Below are positions 1 to 15,727 of a stretch of 64,000 nt of DNA, piece by piece. Positions within the stretch are counted from its first letter, which is position 1, and each line of letters opens with the position of its first letter. The position numbers were made by a program, and so were the translations under genes. This stretch comes from Naegleria gruberi (lineage: Eukaryota), in assembly GCA_000004985.1 (NCBI GenBank), contig GG738923.1. One strand, given 5' to 3'. Under the pieces are notes generated by a model, which did not search any database, was not told the DNA's origin, and saw nothing but the letters and a program-made list of their open reading frames with translations.

Positions 1-12
1 GCGCGCCAATAT
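1..12. promoter_or_regulatory. GC-rich E2F-like element GCGCGCCAAT at the window edge, about 375 bp upstream of the thymidine kinase ATG (truncated by the window start)
   Basis: Sequence gcgcgccaatat at positions 1-12. It shares GCGCCAATA with the palindromic TTGGCGCCAATA found upstream of the DNA ligase gene at 12513-12524. The E2F consensus is TTTSSCGC. Confidence 0.25.
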
Positions 13-376
13 TTTTCGTTACACAAAACACTTTGCAAAATAATCCAAACAAAAAAAAAGCGACAAATCTCCTGAACTCAAAGTCAAAGTACACACAATT
101 TGATTTTGATCATCTCCAACACTCAAGGTAGGTTAATCAACATTCTCCGAGATGCTAAATCATTGAATCAATATCGTTCATCACGACAATTTTCCAATCA
201 ATTTTAAAAAACTCCAAAATCTTGGAAACTTTCTATGAAAAGAAGGAAAAAACGTTTCAAAAAAATCAACGAAGAAAACAAACTCTAGATTCTCATCACC
301 ACGAAATCTTTGTAGTTGAAGAAGAAGGAATTTTTAAACACACATCTCTGATTTAATAATTATTCAAACTTAAACA

Positions 377-1204
377 ATGTCTGATATTGCCACTATCGAA
401 CCTAGTGCTACACCATCCACTCCTAAAAAGTCATCACCAAAGGCTTCATGTTCTTCTACTCCTTCAAATAGTAGTAAACCAAATGGTGAAGCTATCAATG
501 TTTCCACTCCAAATTCAGCACTCCACTTGTCTAATCAATATGGTTTTCCATTGAATTATAATGGTCAAATTCAACTCATCTTTGGTAATATGTTTGCTGG
601 TAAAACCTCGGAATTGTTGAGAAGATTACGTAGATATCAATATGCTCAAAAGGAAACCGTATTGGTAAAGTACATCAATGATGACCGTTACAGTAAGGAA
701 AATGTGTCAACACACGACTTGGTTCAACAAAAAGCTATTCCGACAGATCGTCTCGAAAAGATTGCTTCACAATTGCTTGGTTATCATGTTATTGGTATTG
801 ATGAAGGTCAATTCTTCCCTGATTTGGTTGAATTCTGTGAAGCTGCTGCTAATGGAGGTAAAATTGTAATTGTTAGTGCTTTGGATGGTACTTTCCAAAG
901 AAAACAATTTGGAAATGTTCTTTCATTGGTTCCAATGGCTGAAAGTGTTGTGAAACTTAAGGCTGTTTGTATGGTTTGTGGTAAAGATGCTGCCTTCTCT
1001 AAACGTATCACTGATGAACAACAAACTGAAGTTATTGGTGGATCTGATAAGTATATTGCCACTTGTAGAAAGTGTTATATGACTAGAAATACTCCATATT
1101 CAAAGAAGAGTAAGAGCGTTTTCCAAGATTCCATGTTAGAAGAACATGAAGAATGCTCTGATTATTCTGAACATTGTGAAATTTTCTCTCCTCAAAAACA
1201 CTAA
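377..1204 (+). CDS. TK1: Thymidine kinase, TK1 family (275 aa), with a roughly 60-aa S/T/P-rich N-terminal extension and an acidic C-terminal tail
   Basis: True ATG at 377 in an A-rich context (ttaaacaATG). P-loop IFGNMFAGKTSELLRR aligns with TK1 IYGPMFSGKSTELIRR. VIGIDEGQFF aligns with the VIGIDEAQFF motif. Zinc-ribbon cysteines are present (CMVCGKDAAFSKR ... CRKCY). Stop is TAA at 1202-1204. Confidence 0.85.
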   Translation: MSDIATIEPSATPSTPKKSSPKASCSSTPSNSSKPNGEAINVSTPNSALHLSNQYGFPLNYNGQIQLIFGNMFAGKTSELLRRLRRYQYAQKETVLVKYINDDRYSKENVSTHDLVQQKAIPTDRLEKIASQLLGYHVIGIDEGQFFPDLVEFCEAAANGGKIVIVSALDGTFQRKQFGNVLSLVPMAESVVKLKAVCMVCGKDAAFSKRITDEQQTEVIGGSDKYIATCRKCYMTRNTPYSKKSKSVFQDSMLEEHEECSDYSEHCEIFSPQKH

Positions 1205-1698: not shown

Positions 1699-2799
1699 TT
1701 ACAACCTTGAAGGTCTATAGCTTGTCAATTTCTCTCGCATTTTCAATAACGTTCCAATAGAAGGAATAAAATACAGCGAGCCTAAAATATTAGTGGAAAA
1801 TCTCATAATATGATCATTGTGACCTTGTGGAGTGGCATATTCGCCCTTTCCAACCATGCTCTCCAATTGATGAATGAAGGTTTTTCCAGAGTTTGCATAC
1901 GAAATGAAGAATAATCCATGTTGTGATGAATTTCCAAAGCTCATTGATTGCCTCACAACCTCAATTTCATCTCCGTCCTTTTCTAAAGTGACACGAGCCA
2001 CATGGGAAGTTTCTGGCTTATTTTCCAACTCGATGCTATCCTCTTTCGTTCTTCCAATATCATTCTCTTGTTCTTTCAATGAAAGTGAATTGAAAAATTT
2101 GAGATTGTGAACCCATTTCTGAGCCAAGAGGAAACTATCCTTTTCATTGGTGAGGGTTGCCTCAATTTTCTCTTCCATTTCTTTTGGATTTTCAGTTCCA
2201 TCCTCGAATCCACTCAAATCTCTTCCAAGACCAGATTTCTTATTTCTTCTATGGAGGAATGCATAGGTTTCATCCTGAATTTTCTTTATCAATGGAGAAA
2301 TAAATTCATGATTTGCAAAATCCTGAGTAGCTCTAAAACAATTGTCCATATTTACAGATTTAATGTGAAGAAATAAATCTCCACCAGTATTTGGAAAACC
2401 ACCAAATTTACCCTTCAAATCTTTAGGATATTGTGGAAATATTTCTGCCTGCATATATTCTCTTACATAATCCAGTGAATTATCTTGTATATTTCCTAAA
2501 ATTGAATTGGTCAACTCATATCCAAATCCAACAGCAAACTGTGTGCATTTTTCTTTATTCCACCTCTCCATAATCTGCAAACAAGCTTCCACTAATTTAA
2601 AATAAATTTTCATAGCCTTCCCATTTGATGAACTCTTCAGCTCATCCTTCAATTCAATCGTAACAAAACAAGCATGATCCGAGATTGGAGTTAATATCGT
2701 CGATTGGCAATGTTTCTCACCATGCCGATGATGGTGATGATTCTCATGGTGTGCGTGATGATGATGGTGATGATTATGCAAGTGATGCAGTGAGGACAT
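1699..2799 (-). CDS. DyP-type (dye-decolorizing) heme peroxidase family protein, 366 aa, with a His-rich N-terminus (HHLHNHHHHHHAHHENHHHHRH)
   Basis: N-terminal hallmark QSTILTPISDHACFVTIEL resembles the GILTPxxxHAxFxxxD motif of DyP/EfeB. GFEDGTENP matches the GFKDGTxNP distal-Asp motif. TSHVARV fits the proximal-His region. ATG at 2797-2799 on the minus strand is preceded by an A-run. Stop TAA is at 1699-1701 (minus). Confidence 0.6.
   Translation of the reverse strand: MSSLHHLHNHHHHHHAHHENHHHHRHGEKHCQSTILTPISDHACFVTIELKDELKSSSNGKAMKIYFKLVEACLQIMERWNKEKCTQFAVGFGYELTNSILGNIQDNSLDYVREYMQAEIFPQYPKDLKGKFGGFPNTGGDLFLHIKSVNMDNCFRATQDFANHEFISPLIKKIQDETYAFLHRRNKKSGLGRDLSGFEDGTENPKEMEEKIEATLTNEKDSFLLAQKWVHNLKFFNSLSLKEQENDIGRTKEDSIELENKPETSHVARVTLEKDGDEIEVVRQSMSFGNSSQHGLFFISYANSGKTFIHQLESMVGKGEYATPQGHNDHIMRFSTNILGSLYFIPSIGTLLKMREKLTSYRPSRL
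2706..2790 (-). repeat. Imperfect CAT/CAC codon repeat encoding the poly-His tract of the DyP-like protein
   Basis: Plus strand reads catgccgatgatggtgatgattctcatggtgtgcgtgatgatgatggtgatgattatgcaagtgatg; the reverse complement gives runs of CAC/CAT (His) codons. Confidence 0.6.
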
Positions 2800-2967
2800 T
2801 TTTTTTCTACTTGATTTTTATGTTTGAGGAAAACTTCAAAATTTCCCGCCTCTGTAATCCTCTTCAATATTCAATTATAACTTTATGTTAATCTTAATAA
2901 ATATTATTAAATCAATTCATCAAACCTTTGATATTTATTGTAAACTTGCAAGTTCATCTTTAAAAAA

Positions 2968-4020
2968 ATGTCTCAATACAACAACACTAACACATTCCAT
3001 CCACAACCAACAAATACAACAATAACTTCAGCACCACTCACGAGAGGAATTCGCTCCATTTCTAATTGTCCAGACGTGATAGAGGCTCTTGTTCAAGTGT
3101 TGGCTCATCTCGATCCTGTGGTAGAACAATATTTATTCAAACAACAACATGATGATCATCAGATCAAATCGGATGAAAGATCGGAACTTGGGGTAGCCTT
3201 TGATAGGGTATGTAGGAGTGTGTGGAGTCTTGATCAAGGTAGTAGTGAACCTGTTGATGGTTCAGCTTTGGGTGGGTTATTTCCTATGGAAAGTGGTATC
3301 TCCCTTGATTTTGTGGAGGCTTTGAATATTGTGGTCGATGCTTGTCGTGGGAATTTTAATTTTTGTAAAGGAATGACATCTAATTGGATAAGAAGTGATG
3401 ATTGTCCAATATGTGGTTGTAAATCTGCAAGCGAAAGAAAGGAAGAGTTTTGTTCAATCAAGGTGCCAAGTAATCAGTGGAAAGAGTTTGAAAAAAGTGG
3501 AGTGTTGAATCTGAAGGAGGTAGAAACAATTGAAGGATATCATTGTGATGTGTGTTCATTTAGTAAGCCTGCTGAAATTTCTCGTTCCATCAGTCAAGCT
3601 CCACAAATATTGATTTTACAAATGGATCGTTTCTGTTTCGATTATGAAACATTTAATGTTGTTAAAAAGAATGATTTTTACAAGGTTTATCTTAATCAAC
3701 AATTGAAACTATTGATGGAAAATAATTCTTTGGAATCCTATGAATTGGTTGCTGTAGTGAATCATTATGGATTGCAGACATCAGGTTCTTATGGAGGATT
3801 CTTTTTAAATCCAACCAATAGAAGATGGTACAAAGTAGCTTGCCCAAATCAGGTTCCAACTCTTGTTGAAGACTTTAGTACAATCAACAATGTCTCAAAT
3901 TATGTTTATTTCTTTAAGAAGGCAGCTGAAAAGAAATCATGGCAATCTACTGCCTTGTCCAGCCAGTCTGTATCAGATATTTCATTTTCCTTCACGAATG
4001 AAGAAGACTGTGAAATGTAA
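2968..4020 (+). CDS. Ubiquitin carboxyl-terminal hydrolase (USP / peptidase C19)-like protein, 350 aa, probably a catalytically inactive pseudo-deubiquitinase
   Basis: Degenerate Cys-box GIRSISNCPDVIEALVQVL (canonical GLxNLGNTCYMNSxLQCL). USP finger zinc ribbon CPICGC ... CDVC. QILILQMDRF matches the LxLxLKRF motif. His-box YELVAVVNHYGLQTSGSYGGFF ... WYKVACPNQV keeps the first His, but the catalytic GHY His is Ser (GSY) and the FDD Asp is replaced (VAC). ATG at 2968 in the context aaaaaaaATG. Confidence 0.55.
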   Translation: MSQYNNTNTFHPQPTNTTITSAPLTRGIRSISNCPDVIEALVQVLAHLDPVVEQYLFKQQHDDHQIKSDERSELGVAFDRVCRSVWSLDQGSSEPVDGSALGGLFPMESGISLDFVEALNIVVDACRGNFNFCKGMTSNWIRSDDCPICGCKSASERKEEFCSIKVPSNQWKEFEKSGVLNLKEVETIEGYHCDVCSFSKPAEISRSISQAPQILILQMDRFCFDYETFNVVKKNDFYKVYLNQQLKLLMENNSLESYELVAVVNHYGLQTSGSYGGFFLNPTNRRWYKVACPNQVPTLVEDFSTINNVSNYVYFFKKAAEKKSWQSTALSSQSVSDISFSFTNEEDCEM

Positions 4021-7205: not shown

Positions 7206-10004
7206 TTATGGTCTTTCGGCTAACATTTGATTAATGTTGAGAATAATGGAAGAGTAGACTGTGACTGATTCTAAATAGTTTTGAATGAGGATTCTTTCAT
7301 TGTGACCGTGAATTCTTTGGAGATCTTCAGTCTTCTTTACGAGTCTCATTGGCAAATAGCCATATGCAAAATCACTCAACTTTCTATAATACTTGCTATC
7401 ACTACCAGCAATAAATAAATAAGGTGAAACAATCACATCTGGTTGAATATGATTAATTGCTCTCTTTACAACTTCAAACTCTACACAATCAACACAAGAT
7501 ACAGAGGAAGCTTCTTGACAATCGATCATTAAAGGTGTGACGGTAATGTTTGGATGATTGACAACCTTTTCCAAGTGGCTCTTGACACTTTGCAAATTAT
7601 CATACGGAGAGAATCTAGTATTGAGAATAAAGTTTGCCTTAGATGGCATTACATTACTTTGGACACCAGCAGCCACAATGGTTGGAGCAAAGCTAGTTCT
7701 AGCCAAAGCATTTGGTGGACCACCAATATAAGACAATGCAATACTCAAAGGATAGGCCAAAATATCAAGATTTGCAACAATGGCCTTCATGATATAACCT
7801 TCAGAGTGTGGAGCCAAACTGAGGAGAACATTATGAATGATTGGTTTAAGTAAATGGGCAGGCATTGGATTATTTTCAATTTCAAGGATGGCCTTTGACA
7901 ATGTTCCAATACAGCTAGTTCTTCCTGGCATGGAAGCATGACCTGGATTACAATTGGCTTGAATGTCGAAATTACAATAGCCCTTTTCTGCAATGGCAAC
8001 AAAGGCAATTGGAGAGGCAACACCTGGAAATTGTTGGTCAGCAATTTGACCTCCTTCATCCAAAACAAATGCAAATCTGACATTCTTCTTCAAAAAGTAT
8101 GAAGTAACTTTGGCAGCTCCATGAACTCCTCCAATTTCTTCATCCATACCAATAACAACATAGGTATCTCTTTGAGGTTTAACCAATAAATTTTCTCTTC
8201 TCAATTGATTAAGAGCTTCCAAAATTTCATAAACTCCATTCTTATCATCCAATGTGCCTCTTCCATGCAAGAAACCATTCACTTGTTTACCACTAAATGG
8301 TGGATATTCCCATTTAGATTCATCATTGATTGGCACAACATCCACATGTCCAGTCAATAGAACTGGTTTCTTTTCCTTATCACTTCCTCTCCATACCCAA
8401 ACTCTCGAAGCAAGAAAATCATCCTCTCCCTTAACTTCACTTTGAATAATATCTTGAGTAATTTCCTCCAAAACTCCCTCACTTTCAGAGAATAAAAGTG
8501 GGAAATCCTTCACCATTTGATCAAACAATTCATGGAAAAGTTGTTTATCCTTCTGATAATCAATAGTTGGTTTCTGAATAGCCCTAGCCAATCTCAACAC
8601 TGCATCAGCCTGTTCCTCCTTGCTCCAATTTAATTTACTAAATTGTTCGGAAGCCTTTGATTGTTCAATTCTCTTTGAAAATTCCAAATCTCTTTCTTTA
8701 ATAATTTTCATATTAAATGTATAGGTTCGGAATGCCATCAATCCAATCAACCCGATCGCAGCCAAGAATAATAATTTTAAAATCGATTTGATGAGTGAGC
8801 ACGCAAGATTTGAAATGGCCATTTTTTTAAGATGAAAACGGAGTGAATGTTCGGACAATTGTGCAGATGGACATTTTATGCATGGTGAGATGAAAGTTGT
8901 TTTTTGAGTTTCTCCAAAGATTATATCAGAAACAGATTTGATATCATCTTCTGAGGTAGCATTAACAATATGATAGGAATCAAGTGTATTTCTATCTATT
9001 TTCTTGAAATATTGTGTAATGATCGAGTTGATAACTAGTTTAAGATAATGATTAGCAATTTCTGATCTTTCTAATTCTGGTAAAATATTCGAAACGAGTT
9101 CTCTATCATATTTCACTCCATTTTCCAATTTTTTACAAAGAATATCTGGTTTTACAAAGAGAATGATCTTACGAGAAGGAATAAACCATCTCGTATTCAT
9201 AACCTCACCAATTAGGGATAGAGATTCGTCCATTCTTTGAACACTGTCATCTTCCATTATAGTTTGATTAAATTCTGAAAGAGAAACCATGTAAACTAAT
9301 GTATGAACATCCTCAAAGAAATGAATCCAAATCTTTCTTGAATTTCTCCTTCCCACAACATCAATCACTTGAATTTCAGTGTTTCGTCTCGTAATAGTTT
9401 CGTATATTGAAATTCCTTTAGATGTGGAAGAAATCAATGAATAGGGAGAAAATATTTTCCCACGTTCAATTCTCAAAACTAATTCCTTAACATTTTCGTA
9501 CATTGAAATTCCACCTCTACTCCACACCAATTCATAAAACTCTCTAAAAAAGGAAATTTTCCACAGATTGACCAATATTTCAACGCAATCTATTTTTTGC
9601 AATTCCATTTCTAAACAGTTGCTAGCATTATCTGTTGCACTTTCGAATAATAATCTCATCTCAGGTCGAATAATTTCTTTCAACAAGTAATTTCTCTCTT
9701 GCTCTCCCATCTCTTCCCAAATTCTCTCAACAACCAGCGAGCAGACAATTTGCAAATTATTTGCAAAGTTTGCTTCCATGTCGTCACGAAAAGTTGTTTC
9801 TATTCTTGTTTCGGTTTTTGCTGTTCTTGTTTCGGTTGTTGATACGAGTTGTAACATGTGAAATAATGTTGATTTGCCAGAATCGGAGGGACCTAGTAGG
9901 AGAACTTTTGAACATGGGCGATTTTTAATAATATTATAATTGGATTGTGTTAATGTGACATTTGGATTGGCGTTTGACTTGGTGTGTGATGGTTTTGTGC
10001 CCAT
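7206..10004 (-). CDS. 932-aa chimeric protein: N-terminal degenerate G-protein alpha-subunit-like domain (about aa 1-390), one transmembrane helix, and a C-terminal carboxypeptidase S-like M20A metallopeptidase (about aa 430-932)
   Basis: G-alpha part: MGTKPS (Gly2, Ser6 myristoylation pattern). P-loop KVLLLGPSDSGKST (plus strand about 9845-9910). Helical-domain-length insert. Switch I ISSTSKGI instead of RVKTTGI. Switch II DVVGRRNSRKIWIHFFEDVHTLVYMVSLSEF aligns with [31 protein letters not shown] (plus strand about 9337-9372). IILFVKPDIL replaces IILFLNKKDLF. VNATSED replaces TCATDT. TM helix LIKSILKLLFLAAIGLIGLMAF (about 8735-8800). M20 part matches yeast Cps1 throughout: WRGSDKEKKPVLLTGHVDVVPINDESKWEYPPFSG (about 8331-8360), GRGTLDDKNG, VVIGMDEEIGGVHGAA, FVLDEGGQI, IAEKGYCNFDI, HGHNERI. 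The ORF is continuous with no stop between the domains. Confidence 0.7.
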   Translation of the reverse strand: MGTKPSHTKSNANPNVTLTQSNYNIIKNRPCSKVLLLGPSDSGKSTLFHMLQLVSTTETRTAKTETRIETTFRDDMEANFANNLQIVCSLVVERIWEEMGEQERNYLLKEIIRPEMRLLFESATDNASNCLEMELQKIDCVEILVNLWKISFFREFYELVWSRGGISMYENVKELVLRIERGKIFSPYSLISSTSKGISIYETITRRNTEIQVIDVVGRRNSRKIWIHFFEDVHTLVYMVSLSEFNQTIMEDDSVQRMDESLSLIGEVMNTRWFIPSRKIILFVKPDILCKKLENGVKYDRELVSNILPELERSEIANHYLKLVINSIITQYFKKIDRNTLDSYHIVNATSEDDIKSVSDIIFGETQKTTFISPCIKCPSAQLSEHSLRFHLKKMAISNLACSLIKSILKLLFLAAIGLIGLMAFRTYTFNMKIIKERDLEFSKRIEQSKASEQFSKLNWSKEEQADAVLRLARAIQKPTIDYQKDKQLFHELFDQMVKDFPLLFSESEGVLEEITQDIIQSEVKGEDDFLASRVWVWRGSDKEKKPVLLTGHVDVVPINDESKWEYPPFSGKQVNGFLHGRGTLDDKNGVYEILEALNQLRRENLLVKPQRDTYVVIGMDEEIGGVHGAAKVTSYFLKKNVRFAFVLDEGGQIADQQFPGVASPIAFVAIAEKGYCNFDIQANCNPGHASMPGRTSCIGTLSKAILEIENNPMPAHLLKPIIHNVLLSLAPHSEGYIMKAIVANLDILAYPLSIALSYIGGPPNALARTSFAPTIVAAGVQSNVMPSKANFILNTRFSPYDNLQSVKSHLEKVVNHPNITVTPLMIDCQEASSVSCVDCVEFEVVKRAINHIQPDVIVSPYLFIAGSDSKYYRKLSDFAYGYLPMRLVKKTEDLQRIHGHNERILIQNYLESVTVYSSIILNINQMLAERP

Positions 10005-12356: not shown

Positions 12357-12512
12357 ACAGTATTTCTTCTAACAAGCTTCAACCAACATGAAACTCTTCA
12401 CATTTAATCCATGTAAATCAGGAAAAGAATCTTTCTCAAAATGAGAAGAACCTCGTTTCAGAAATTCTCAGTATCCACTGTTTAGTGGAAATTGGATGAA
12501 CTTGGCGCCAAT

Positions 12513-12524
12513 AAAAAACGCTGG
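12513..12524. promoter_or_regulatory. Perfect palindromic E2F-like site TTGGCGCCAA(TA), about 65-85 bp upstream of the DNA ligase start codon
   Basis: cttggcgccaataaaaaacg. TTGGCGCCAA is its own reverse complement and resembles the overlapping inverted E2F sites TTTSGCGCCAAA found in replication-gene promoters. It shares GCGCCAATA with the TK upstream edge. Confidence 0.35.
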
Positions 12525-12585
12525 ATAAAAAAATTTGACAAAAATCAGAAAAAAAAATTTGGTAAACACAGTTTAAATAATAATA

Positions 12586-15500
12586 ATGGTAGGTTGATAA
12601 TGGTAATTTTCAAGGTAGATAATGATGGATAATTTGATGATTTGTGTTTATTATTATTTTTGTAGGCATCTAGATCCTCTTCATCTTCATCAAAGGATAA
12701 TTCGGGTAGATTCTCTGAATTTGTTGCCCTCTGTAAAGACATTGAAGAGGTATCGGCTCACACTGAAAAGAGTCAAGTGATGAAGGAGTTTCTATCCGAT
12801 TTCAAGGGAGATGTTTATTTGTTGTATAAATTATTATTTGCAAAGGAAAATCAGAGAAAGTTTAATTTAAAAGATAAGAAACTTGTTGATGTTTGTGCAA
12901 GTGCATTCGGAGAAGATCTTGATGAAATGATTGATCACATGGATTCTAAAGGAGATGTTTCTGAAACTTTAAAGAAATATTTAGTGAGAAGTGATCATGC
13001 AAGAGATAAAGGAATTGTTACTTTGAAACAGGTTGATGATTTCCTTGAAGAATTAACACAATTATCAAAGAAAGAAGATCAAATTCGTGCTTTTAAGAAA
13101 TTTGTAAATGATAAGTTAACTGGAGATGAATTGAAATTTATATGTAGAATAATTTGTAAAGATTTAAAGATTAGAGCTGGACCAAAATATTTATTAGCAG
13201 CACTTCATTCTGATGCTTATCAATCCTATATTTTAACACATGATTTGAAACAAATTGTAAATGTTATAACTAGTGGAAGTGATTTAAAAAATTTATCAAT
13301 GACAGCTCAATCACTTTTAGATATTGATGCATTGATTAAAGATGCAGATAGTGATGATGAAGGTACAAATTTTGATATGATGAATATATCAGATGATGAA
13401 GATGATAAAAAGAAGAAATCATCCAAAGCAACTTCTTCCAATGATAAAAAGAAGACAATTGATAAAAAGAAGAGTAGTAAATCATCAGATAATTCTGATA
13501 AGGATGATGATTCTGGAGATGAAACAGATATTGGTGAAAATGTGGATGATATTGAGGAAAAACCTGAAGAACTTGTAGATGAAGAATCAGAGGATGATTC
13601 TAAAAAGAAAAAGAAGAATAAGAAGGCTCCTAAGAAGATTAAAATATCAACCAAGATGAAACTTTTCCATCCTGTCAAACCAATGCTTGCTCGTCCAAGT
13701 AAGACTTATGATGATGTTATTGCTCGTTGTCCAAATGGTTTTTATTCTGAACTTAAATATGATGGTGAAAGAATTCAAATTCACTATGATAGAAAAAATG
13801 ATGAAATCAAATATTTTAGTAGAAATTTGAAAGATGTTCAAGAGTATAAGATCAAATCTGTAAAAAAGTATATTTCTAAAGCTATTAAGGAAAAGGTTGA
13901 ATCTGTAATTTTAGATGGTGAAATTTTAATGATGGATACAAAGACAAATAAGATTCTTCCATTTGGTACACTTGGTAAAAATGTTAGACAAGATCACAAA
14001 GATGCTGTAACAACTATATTTTTATTTGATATATTGTATTATAATGGTAAATCACTCCTTTCAGTTCCTTTATATAAGAGAAAGGCATTAATGACTAAAA
14101 TTGTAAATCCAATCAAACATAGAGTAATGTTAGGTGAATATTTGGTTGTAAAGGGTTCAAAACAAACAAGAGAAGCTATTGTTTCTGCTGAAATGAGTGC
14201 AATGATTAAGAAGGGTGAAGAAGGTTTAGTGGTATGTATTATTTTCAAATTTATTATTAATTTTTTTATTAACAATTTTACATATTAGTTAAAAGATTTA
14301 TGTTCTCCATATGAACCTAATGCTAGACATTGGCTTAAAATGAAAAAAGATTACTTGAAAGGTATGGCAGATAGTGTAGATCTTGTTGTTCTAGGAGCTT
14401 ATCTTGGTACAGGTAGTAAAGGTGGTTTAATGTCTGTATTCATGATGGGTTCTTTTGACAAGAAATTAGGAAAGTGGAGAATTATTTGTAAATGTGGTAA
14501 CGGACACGATGATCAAACTATTGAAACATTGAATGAAGAATTGAAATCAAATATGAAAAGAATCAGTAAGGATCCTTCATTGGTTCCAGATGATATTGAT
14601 ATTCATACTAATGCTCTTGTACCTGATTTTATTGTTAAAGATCCAAAAAAGAGTGTTGTTTGGGAAATTCAAGGAGCTGAATTTTCAGTTTCCTCAAGAA
14701 AAGACAGACCAATTTCTGTCAGATTCCCTAGAGTTACAAAAATTAGAGATGATAAGGATGTTTTAGATCATACCAATTATCAAGAAATTATCAAATTGAA
14801 AAATGAAAGTAATAGAAAAGGTTTAGTGCCTATTTTTGGAGATGCTGATGCAGGAGATGATTCTGATGAAAGTGTAGATGTAAAAGATAAAAAGAAACGT
14901 TCCAGAGCTAAAAAATCAAAATCTGATGATGAAGAAGATGAATCAGATTCAAGCTCAAAGAAAAAGAAAAATTCAAGAAAGAAGAAGATAAATTCCTCAG
15001 ATGATGAAGATGATGAGGATGATAAAAAGTCAGCTAAAAAGGCTAATGATAAGAAAAAATCAAAATCCTCAGATAATTCTGATGGTGAAGATGATGATCC
15101 AAAAGCAAAGAAAGCTAAAAAGTCAACTATTGGTATCAAATTATCTGATATTGATACTATTAATGACTCTTCTACTCCAGAACAAATCTATTACATTTAT
15201 GGTGATTTTATGAAAATGCCAATGAATAAGGAAGAAAAACTAATTTCACATTGTGTAGATGACTCTAGTAGATGGTCAGATAAAGGATCAATGGGAAATA
15301 TTGAACTCTTGTATGGTGAAGATATTAAGAAGGCTTACACTGATGATATGAACATAATTGGTGATGCTCAAATTGTTGTAGCATTACCAAATCATTTATG
15401 TAATATGGTATGTCTTCAATTTGTCAAGAAAGGATCTGCACCAAAAGTTGACTATCATGCTTTGGATGAATGTTTAAAGAAATGTGCTACCTACATGAAT

Positions 15501-15677
15501 CAAAAAAAGATTGGTACATTCCATTTATATAGATTGCATCACGCCATTTCTGGTTTGGATTGGAATAGAGTTGAACAACTTTTGAAGGAAAATCTTTCAA
15601 ACAAGGGATTTGCTGTTTTCATCTATACAAAGGATAGAGATGATAAGGATAGAGTTAATGAATCAAAAAATAAGTTG
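12586..15677 (+). CDS. LIG1: ATP-dependent DNA ligase I, three exons: exon 1 is the ATG only (12586-12588, or alternatively 12600-12602); exon 2 is 12666-14231; exon 3 is 14289 to at least 15677, where the 3' end is lost in the N gap. At least 986 aa. Carries two K/D/E/S-rich inserts and a C-terminal extension of about 190 aa beyond the conserved core.
   Basis: Exon 2 opens right after an acceptor ttattatttttgtag|GCA and encodes FSEFVALCKDIEEVSAHTEKSQVMKEFL (compare human LIG1 [28 protein letters not shown]). Motif I is ELKYDGERIQIHY (KxDGxR). Motif V EGLV is joined across the intron to LKDLCSPYEPNARHWLKMKKDYL (compare EGLMVKTL...YEIAKRSHNWLKLKKDYL). DLVVLGAYLGTGSKGG and ISVRFPRVTKIRDDK match the OB/conserved C-terminal motifs. 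Reading through the 14232-14288 intron gives the stop TAG at 14286-14288. Confidence 0.85.
12589..12665 (+). other. Intron 1 of the DNA ligase gene, immediately after the start codon (77 nt; 63 nt if ATG 12600 is used)
   Basis: aataataATG|gtaggt...tttgtttattattatttttgtag|GCATCT. Frame check gives M + ASRSSSSSSKDNSGRFSEF... in phase 0. No in-frame ATG exists in exon 2 upstream of the conserved region except this one. Confidence 0.55.
13341..13655 (+). repeat. Low-complexity coding insert (D/E/K/S-rich, about 105 aa) between the DNA-binding and adenylation domains of the ligase
   Basis: DADSDDEGTNFDMMNISDDEDDKKKKSSKATSSNDKKKTIDKKKSSKSSDNSDKDDDSGDE...KKKKKNKKAPKK, generated by GAT/GAA/AAG-rich triplets. 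It also creates the spurious antisense ORF 13307-13678. Confidence 0.7.
14232..14288 (+). other. Intron 2 of the DNA ligase gene (57 nt, GTATGT...TATTAG)
   Basis: Conserved motifs EGLV and LKDLCSPYEP are contiguous only after removing this AT-rich segment. It ends with an in-frame TAG, so it cannot be coding. Confidence 0.8.
14841..15125 (+). repeat. Second low-complexity D/E/K/S-rich insert (about 95 aa) after the ligase catalytic core. It contains a 15-nt exact copy (tcagataattctgat, 15069-15083) of a segment in the first insert (13485-13499).
   Basis: DADAGDDSDESVDVKDKKKRSRAKKSKSDDEEDESDSSSKKKKNSRKKKINSSDDEDDEDDKKSAKKANDKKKSKSSDNSDGEDDDPKAKKAKK. KSSDNSD is shared with the first insert at the nucleotide level. 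Confidence 0.7.
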
Positions 15678-15727
15678 NNNNNNNNNNNNNNNNNNNNNNN
15701 NNNNNNNNNNNNNNNNNNNNNNNNNNN
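15678..15727. other. Assembly gap (50 N) of unknown true length. It removes the 3' end of the ligase gene and the 5' half of the following kinase gene.
   Basis: Run of n characters. The flanking ORFs are both open into the gap. Confidence 0.95.

Follow-up and report, generated by a model that had tools for sequence, protein, structure and literature searches.

Naegleria gruberi is a heterolobosean amoeboflagellate (Discoba). The stretch of its genome analysed here (the window) is 64,000 nt long, but 73% of it is N padding and 17,071 positions are real bases. Positions 17122-64000 (46,879 positions) are all N, and a 50-N scaffold gap occupies 15678-15727. The within-window statistics are based on these 17 kb and on three sites.

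Genes were called from open reading frames (ORFs) together with Pfam matches (Table 1). The window encodes a TK1-type thymidine kinase (TK) whose protein is 100% identical to N. gruberi TK, along with a DyP peroxidase, a UCH-type hydrolase, a membrane protein and a DNA ligase. A 932 aa ORF on the minus strand contains a G-protein alpha subunit domain (residues 29-362) and an M20 peptidase with its dimerisation domain (residues 549-922), an unusual fusion if this is one gene. The scaffold gap that truncates the ligase gene also hides a protein kinase gene in its 5' portion. CpG is depleted in the window (observed/expected 0.41, vs 0.83 for GpC), consistent with cytosine methylation of the N. 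gruberi genome. Non-genic DNA makes up about 21% of the window and has a lower GC content (0.29); its CpG density is higher than that of genic DNA (14.2 vs 10.1 per kb).

Table 1. Genes, gene parts and candidate regulatory sites in the N. gruberi window (a slash marks an exon-intron boundary).
Feature	Position	Strand	Remarks
E2F-type TK-promoter site GCGCGCCAATA	1-11	+	Cut by window edge; full form ACTTGCGCGCCAATA
Inferred TK 5'-UTR intron (188 nt)	128-315	+	caag/GTAGGT ... tttgtAG/tt; sequence reading only
TK, TK1-type thymidine kinase	377-1204	+	Single coding exon, 275 aa; Pfam TK E = 3.8e-66
DyP peroxidase	1699-2799	-	ORF and Pfam
Third site TTTCCCGCC (as TTTCCCGC, 2842-2849)	2842-2850	+	8/8 vs TTTSSCGC, canonical E2F consensus
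UCH-type hydrolase	2968-4020	+	ORF and Pfam
G-alpha/M20-peptidase ORF	7206-10004	-	ORF and Pfam
Membrane protein, 507 aa	10833-12356	+	ORF and Pfam
Extended block ACTTGGCGCCAATA	12500-12513	+	Common to the TK element ACTTGCGCGCCAATA except for a 1-nt indel
10-bp perfect palindrome TTGGCGCCAA	12502-12511		Putative E2F/DP (or DEL) site, ligase promoter
DNA ligase III-like gene	12586-15677	+	Pfam DNA_ligase_A_N, _M, _C
Ligase exon 2; intron; exon 3	12666-14231; 14232-14288; from 14289	+	3' end lost in 50-N gap

The first exon of the ligase gene consists of the ATG codon itself (12586-12588). It is followed by a 77 nt intron (12589-12665) with clean ends, ATG/GTAGGT...TTTTGTAG. An in-frame TAG at 12663-12665, just before exon 2, means that the start exon must lie upstream, and the match to DNA_ligase_A_N begins 16 residues into exon 2. 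The second intron is confirmed by the EEGLV/LKDL junction, which is present in the reference protein P0121. This public N. gruberi ligase model (915 aa) begins at an internal Met (MKLFHPV...) and does not include the N-terminal DNA-binding domain encoded in the window (DNA_ligase_A_N, E = 8e-32), so the annotation looks to be truncated at its N-terminus. The few amino acid differences between the window ligase and the reference model show that the window derives from another haplotype or strain.

The best homologues of the ligase are Lig3 proteins. Lacking is the PARP-type zinc finger of animal Lig3, and the C-terminal BRCT domains are found in the reference model P0121; in the window this 3' region falls in the scaffold gap. 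Among the matches listed, Percolomonas transcripts are closest (40-49% identity), followed by animal Lig3 (about 43%). The enzyme is DNA ligase III-like (repair or mitochondrial type) and not the replicative ligase I, which contradicts an earlier note on this DNA that had treated the gene as an obvious S-phase or replication gene. Homologues of the ligase were searched for twice, the second time with the low-complexity linkers taken out of the query, and neither list of matches included a Lig3 orthologue of N. lovaniensis, N. fowleri or Willaertia. A tblastn search with the ligase over the N. lovaniensis TK locus (21 kb) did not identify an orthologue. The distribution of the Lig3-like ligase is patchy. 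Beyond the DyP gene, N. lovaniensis is no longer syntenic with the N. gruberi window, and a piggyBac-like DDE transposase gene (PF13843; L009 16011-17627) was found at the point of breakdown in N. lovaniensis.

GC-rich sites upstream of the TK and ligase genes

The published E2F consensus is GCGSSAAA (TTTSSCGC on the other strand), with the GCGC core contacted by the RRXYD motif of the protein (PMC4862756, citing Zheng et al., 1999). We identified matches to this consensus, with a central SGCGS core, at the ligase, upstream of TK and of its orthologues, and at 2842. All three strict E2F-consensus sites in the window are in non-genic (5' intergenic) DNA.

The palindrome TTGGCGCCAA reported earlier upstream of the ligase is real, and includes the sole GGCGCC in the window. 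It is located in the 229-bp intergenic region 12357-12585, and the distance from its end to the ATG is 75 bp, close to the 70 bp or so originally given. The palindrome reads as two overlapping inverted E2F half-sites, with TTGGCGC on both strands. The half-sites, GCGCCAAT and GCGCCAAG, each match GCGSSAAA at 7/8 positions. In its longer form, the element at the ligase reads aACTTG-GCGCCAATAaaa.

The TK string GCGCGCCAAT is at positions 1-10, as previously described, and the TK start codon is at 377, which agrees with the distance of about 375 bp noted before (site-to-ATG distance 366 bp). On the minus strand the site reads ATTGGCGC and matches TTTSSCGC at 7/8 positions. The element had been recognized as cut by the window edge, and the whole of it, cACTTGCGCGCCAATAttt, is recovered on a near-identical N. 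gruberi contig (L001 1193-1207). This is a metagenome contig on which the TK protein is identical and the non-coding DNA slightly diverged. The TK and ligase sites both have AAT in place of AAA, hence the 7/8 matches. The TK element ACTTGCGCGCCAATA and the ligase sequence ACTTG-GCGCCAATA are equal at 14/15 positions, with one indel. The statement that the shared element is otherwise absent also stands: GCGCCAATA occurs exactly twice in the window (3-11 and 12505-12513), and there is no other GCGCC.

The TK element is part of a 610-bp divergent promoter in N. gruberi. The partner gene, a member of the CDC123/D123 cell-proliferation family, is encoded on L001 1-965, upstream of window position 1 and divergent from TK. 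Donor and acceptor pairs similar to those of the predicted 5'-UTR intron (Table 1) are present upstream of TK in N. lovaniensis and in a second Naegleria species (L004). If this intron is real, the start of TK transcription would lie downstream of the E2F-type site by no more than about 120 bp.

The third site, a perfect E2F match that is absent from the earlier note, lies between the divergent DyP peroxidase and UCH genes, whose start codons are 43 bp (DyP) and 118 bp (UCH) away. It is not conserved at the N. lovaniensis or L004 loci, and the shuffles give p about 0.26 for one such match arising by chance. It may be a chance occurrence or specific to N. gruberi.

Conservation upstream of TK

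For comparison we used the TK loci of N. lovaniensis (L002/L009), Willaertia magna (L003), a Logan-assembled Naegleria (L004) and Acrasis kona (L005). The L004 TK fragment is almost identical to N. lovaniensis TK, but the non-coding DNA is different. Two further loci were left out of the footprint. One is a transcript-like contig with a leader of only 50 nt (P0018). The other encodes a TK homologue with 63% identity (P0032) and lies on an unrelated-looking metagenome contig of 103 kb (L006), close to whose end the gene has a ribonucleotide reductase large-subunit gene as a neighbour; this contig is possibly of a giant virus or an unrelated eukaryote.

About 250 bp upstream of TK were aligned for N. 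gruberi, N. lovaniensis, L004 and Willaertia magna, with a mean column identity of 56%. The only contiguous invariant block in the alignment is C-CGCCAA. The upstream sequences read agcTTGTCCCGCCAAActc in N. lovaniensis, ataaCCCGCCAAActc in L004 and cacttgttgTTCCCGCCAAAatc in Willaertia, and the orthologous sites are TCCCGCCAAA, ACCCGCCAAA and TTCCCGCCAAA, respectively (other strand TTTGGCGGG(A)). Judged by their fit to the consensus, TCCCGCCAAA and TTCCCGCCAAA read as textbook E2F sites. The substitutions between the N. gruberi site and its orthologues (GCGCGCCAAT to TCCCGCCAAA and TTCCCGCCAAA) are all inside the E2F consensus, but CCAAT is lost. The predicted functional core is CGCCAA(A/T), rather than the shared 9-mer GCGCCAATA that had been taken as the key element.

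In 49.6 kb of DNA from Naegleria and Willaertia, CGCCAA/TTGGCG was found 12 times. Five copies lie upstream of the four TK genes, at most 600 bp away and all in sense orientation, and two are in the ligase palindrome, which leaves about 0.1 per kb as background. For the relaxed 7-mer TTSSCGS/SCGSSAA there is exactly one occurrence in the 7 kb of L002 and one in the 4.5 kb of L004, in both at the TK site, and there are four in 21 kb of N. lovaniensis. The upstream neighbour of TK is the divergent CDC123-like gene in N. gruberi and a same-strand F-box gene in N. lovaniensis. As the neighbour differs between species while the site stays, the site goes with TK and not with the neighbour. No such site was identified in about 600 bp upstream of TK in Acrasis kona, a more distant heterolobosean.

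We regard the footprint upstream of TK as decisive evidence for reading this element as a putative E2F site. The conservation evidence is specific to TK, no ligase orthologue having been among the matches listed.

E2F-DP as the probable factor, and the alternatives

The source data of Medina et al. (2016, eLife; PMC4862756) include an E2F (NgruE2F), a DP (NgruDP), an E2F7/8-like DEL (NgruDEL) and an RB (NgruRB) of N. gruberi. We identified the Pfam domains E2F_TDP and CC-MB in NgruE2F, and E2F_TDP and DP in NgruDP. The DNA-binding domain of NgruE2F matches that of human E2F4 in PDB 1CF7 (E = 1.6e-26), and a 24-residue stretch that includes the RRXYD motif is identical in the two proteins, as is the recognition helix. 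N. gruberi thus encodes a cognate E2F and DP with RRXYD. With a recognition helix identical to the one in human E2F4, the N. gruberi E2F is expected to share its DNA specificity.

Both motifs are probable E2F/DP sites. We consider it likely that the elements at TK and at the ligase are binding sites of a Naegleria E2F-DP heterodimer, with more confidence for TK and less for the ligase. The E2F-type reading proposed in the earlier note is supported by the presence of E2F, DP, DEL and RB genes, by the conservation of the TK site in four taxa and by enrichment of the consensus, and it withstood each test applied.

It is unlikely that the resemblance arose by chance, from GC-rich strings near two genes chosen post hoc, such that the TK site only, or neither site, is functional. 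Rarity was evaluated by shuffling the 17,071 real bases 2,000 times with dinucleotide counts preserved (a second shuffle implementation agrees). With the consensus fixed beforehand, TTSSCGC was found four times, counting both strands, vs 0.74 expected (p = 0.0075). GCGCCAA/TTGGCGC was found three times vs 0.21 expected (p = 0.003). The palindrome TTGGCGCCAA has p = 0.003 per window and about 4e-5 for a given 229-bp promoter. Thus, the claim that such strings are rare by chance holds for the consensus and the palindrome. It fails for the shared 9-mer: repeated 9-mers with at least five G/C and a CpG number 7 in the window vs 6.5 expected in this control, so that GCGCCAATA by itself, with multiple testing taken into account, is not beyond chance. 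The argument from the 9-mer being weak alone, the weight falls on the match to a pre-defined consensus, on position and on conservation. In favour of chance are also the small number of sites (three in 17 kb), the lack of an orthologous promoter with which to footprint the ligase site, and the canonical site at 2842, which is not conserved. Against it are the enrichment of the pre-specified E2F consensus (p about 0.008) and of the palindrome, the TK core that remained invariant in four taxa while its flanks diverged, and the five sense copies of CGCCAA at most 600 bp upstream of the four TK genes, compared with the low background.

We think it very unlikely that the shared GCGCCAAT is a CCAAT box of the kind present in the human TK1 promoter, bound by an NF-Y (HAP2/3/5)-type factor. 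Both N. gruberi sites do include CCAAT, in equal orientation, and functional inverted CCAAT boxes are known from mammalian TK1 promoters (PMC7694900). However, NF-Y requires an intact CCAAT pentamer, CCAAA is found instead at the orthologous site upstream of TK in N. lovaniensis, the second Naegleria species and Willaertia, and the part kept across TK orthologues is the CGCC core. The NF-Y/CCAAT box was rejected on this lack of conservation of the pentamer. CCAAT/ATTGG occurs 84 times in the 17 kb and so carries little information, GCGCC being the rare part. NF-Y prefers the flanks RRCCAATSR, to which those of the present sites do not appear to conform.

A lineage-specific composite, ACTTG(N0-1)GCGCCAATA, bound by a factor of its own alone or with E2F and defining a regulon narrower than that of E2F, is highly improbable: the TK/ligase identity does reach past the E2F core (14/15 positions, one indel), both elements have a downstream CG at the same offset (AATA-N5-CG), and in Willaertia a TCACTTG precedes the site by a few bases, but neither N. 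lovaniensis nor L004 has kept these flanks, the canonical site at 2842 is not accompanied by them, and the composite has two instances and no known candidate factor.

Returning to the E2F-DP reading, we infer that a Naegleria E2F-DP heterodimer physically binds the putative proximal-promoter sites of TK and of the Lig3-like gene, with the ligase site predicted to be functional. The two-domain E2F7/8-like DEL possibly binds these sites as well, and its two DNA-binding domains would suit it to the palindrome. By analogy with animals, plants and Dictyostelium, an RB-family pocket protein may keep the site-bound E2F-DP repressed in non-proliferating cells. Phosphorylation of RB by CDK would then lead to its release, and the enzymes of nucleotide salvage and DNA joining would be transcribed in time with the cell cycle, for DNA synthesis.

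The components of the RB-E2F network have been placed in the last common ancestor of eukaryotes on gene presence alone (Medina et al., 2016; PMC4862756). It is possible, though short of probable, that the wiring of E2F to thymidine kinase is itself ancestral since the last eukaryotic common ancestor and has been kept in Discoba (Naegleria, Willaertia) as in animals, and that the patchily distributed Lig3-like gene was additionally recruited to the same regulon in N. gruberi via a double site that forms a perfect palindrome and whose flanks (ACTTG...CCAATA) are specific to N. gruberi. Were this the case, Naegleria would offer a tractable model of an RB-E2F network outside opisthokonts and plants.

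Comparison with known RB-E2F systems

In animal G1/S promoters, E2F sites can overlap in inverted orientation (DHFR-type TTTCGCGCCAAA), and it is these that the ligase site most resembles, in having a palindromic GC core with T/A arms and in its location at most about 100 bp from the coding start of a DNA-metabolism gene. Compared with the DHFR-type site, the arms of TTGGCGCCAA are one base shorter (10/12), which is why each half-site reaches 7/8. The recognition helix of the cognate E2F is identical to that of the animal system; the host here is a heterolobosean, and binding is predicted.

In mammals, TK1 belongs to the classical targets of RB/E2F/DREAM (PMC7694900). The mammalian TK1 promoter, with an E2F site and inverted CCAAT boxes, controls a gene of the same TK1-type family, and the Naegleria gene likewise has an E2F-type site upstream, which in N. 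gruberi also overlaps a CCAAT. Unlike in mammals, the CCAAT is not conserved across Naegleria and Willaertia, there is no adjacent CHR, and the Naegleria site is probably upstream of a 5'-UTR intron.

In Dictyostelium, Rb represses replication and DNA-repair genes, ligase genes included (PMC3386910). The RblA/E2F/DP regulon of Dictyostelium and the E2F regulons of plants are, like the one proposed here, non-animal cases of RB-E2F acting over replication and repair genes. Those regulons were defined by expression data from mutants, whereas the Naegleria case is known from sequence and conservation. In the literature that we searched, no E2F cis-elements were described for Naegleria or other Discoba, and Cao et al. 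(2010) mention neither Naegleria nor excavates.

Cis-regulatory evidence for RB-E2F is scarce outside animals, plants and Amoebozoa. The TK site kept across vahlkampfiid genera provides sequence-level support for similar wiring in Discoba, and the human-identical recognition helix of the N. gruberi E2F fits with conserved RB-E2F wiring. The element is probably a known one, the E2F site, newly met in a little-studied branch of eukaryotes; as an E2F mechanism was to be expected, the finding confirms a prediction and overturns none. Short, mutable candidate E2F targets are now available in Naegleria, the genus of the pathogen N. fowleri.

Other elements were considered at these promoters. A CDE/CHR (DREAM) element was rejected, as no TTYGAA/TTCRAA was identified at most 45 bp from the TK or ligase site; one TTCAAA is present 7 bp upstream of the third site. 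An NFI site, TTGGC(N5)GCCAA, was also rejected, since TTGGC and GCCAA abut in the ligase palindrome (0 bp spacer vs 5 bp). To our knowledge, NFI proteins are restricted to animals. A block, T(T/C)CGTTA, is located 5-6 nt 3' of the TK E2F-type site and is kept in three Naegleria (window 17-23, L002 about 2476-2482 and L004 about 229-235). In N. lovaniensis and L004 its other strand reads TAACGG, similar to a Myb site. A CG is also present in the ligase promoter, at an offset matching the one in this block.
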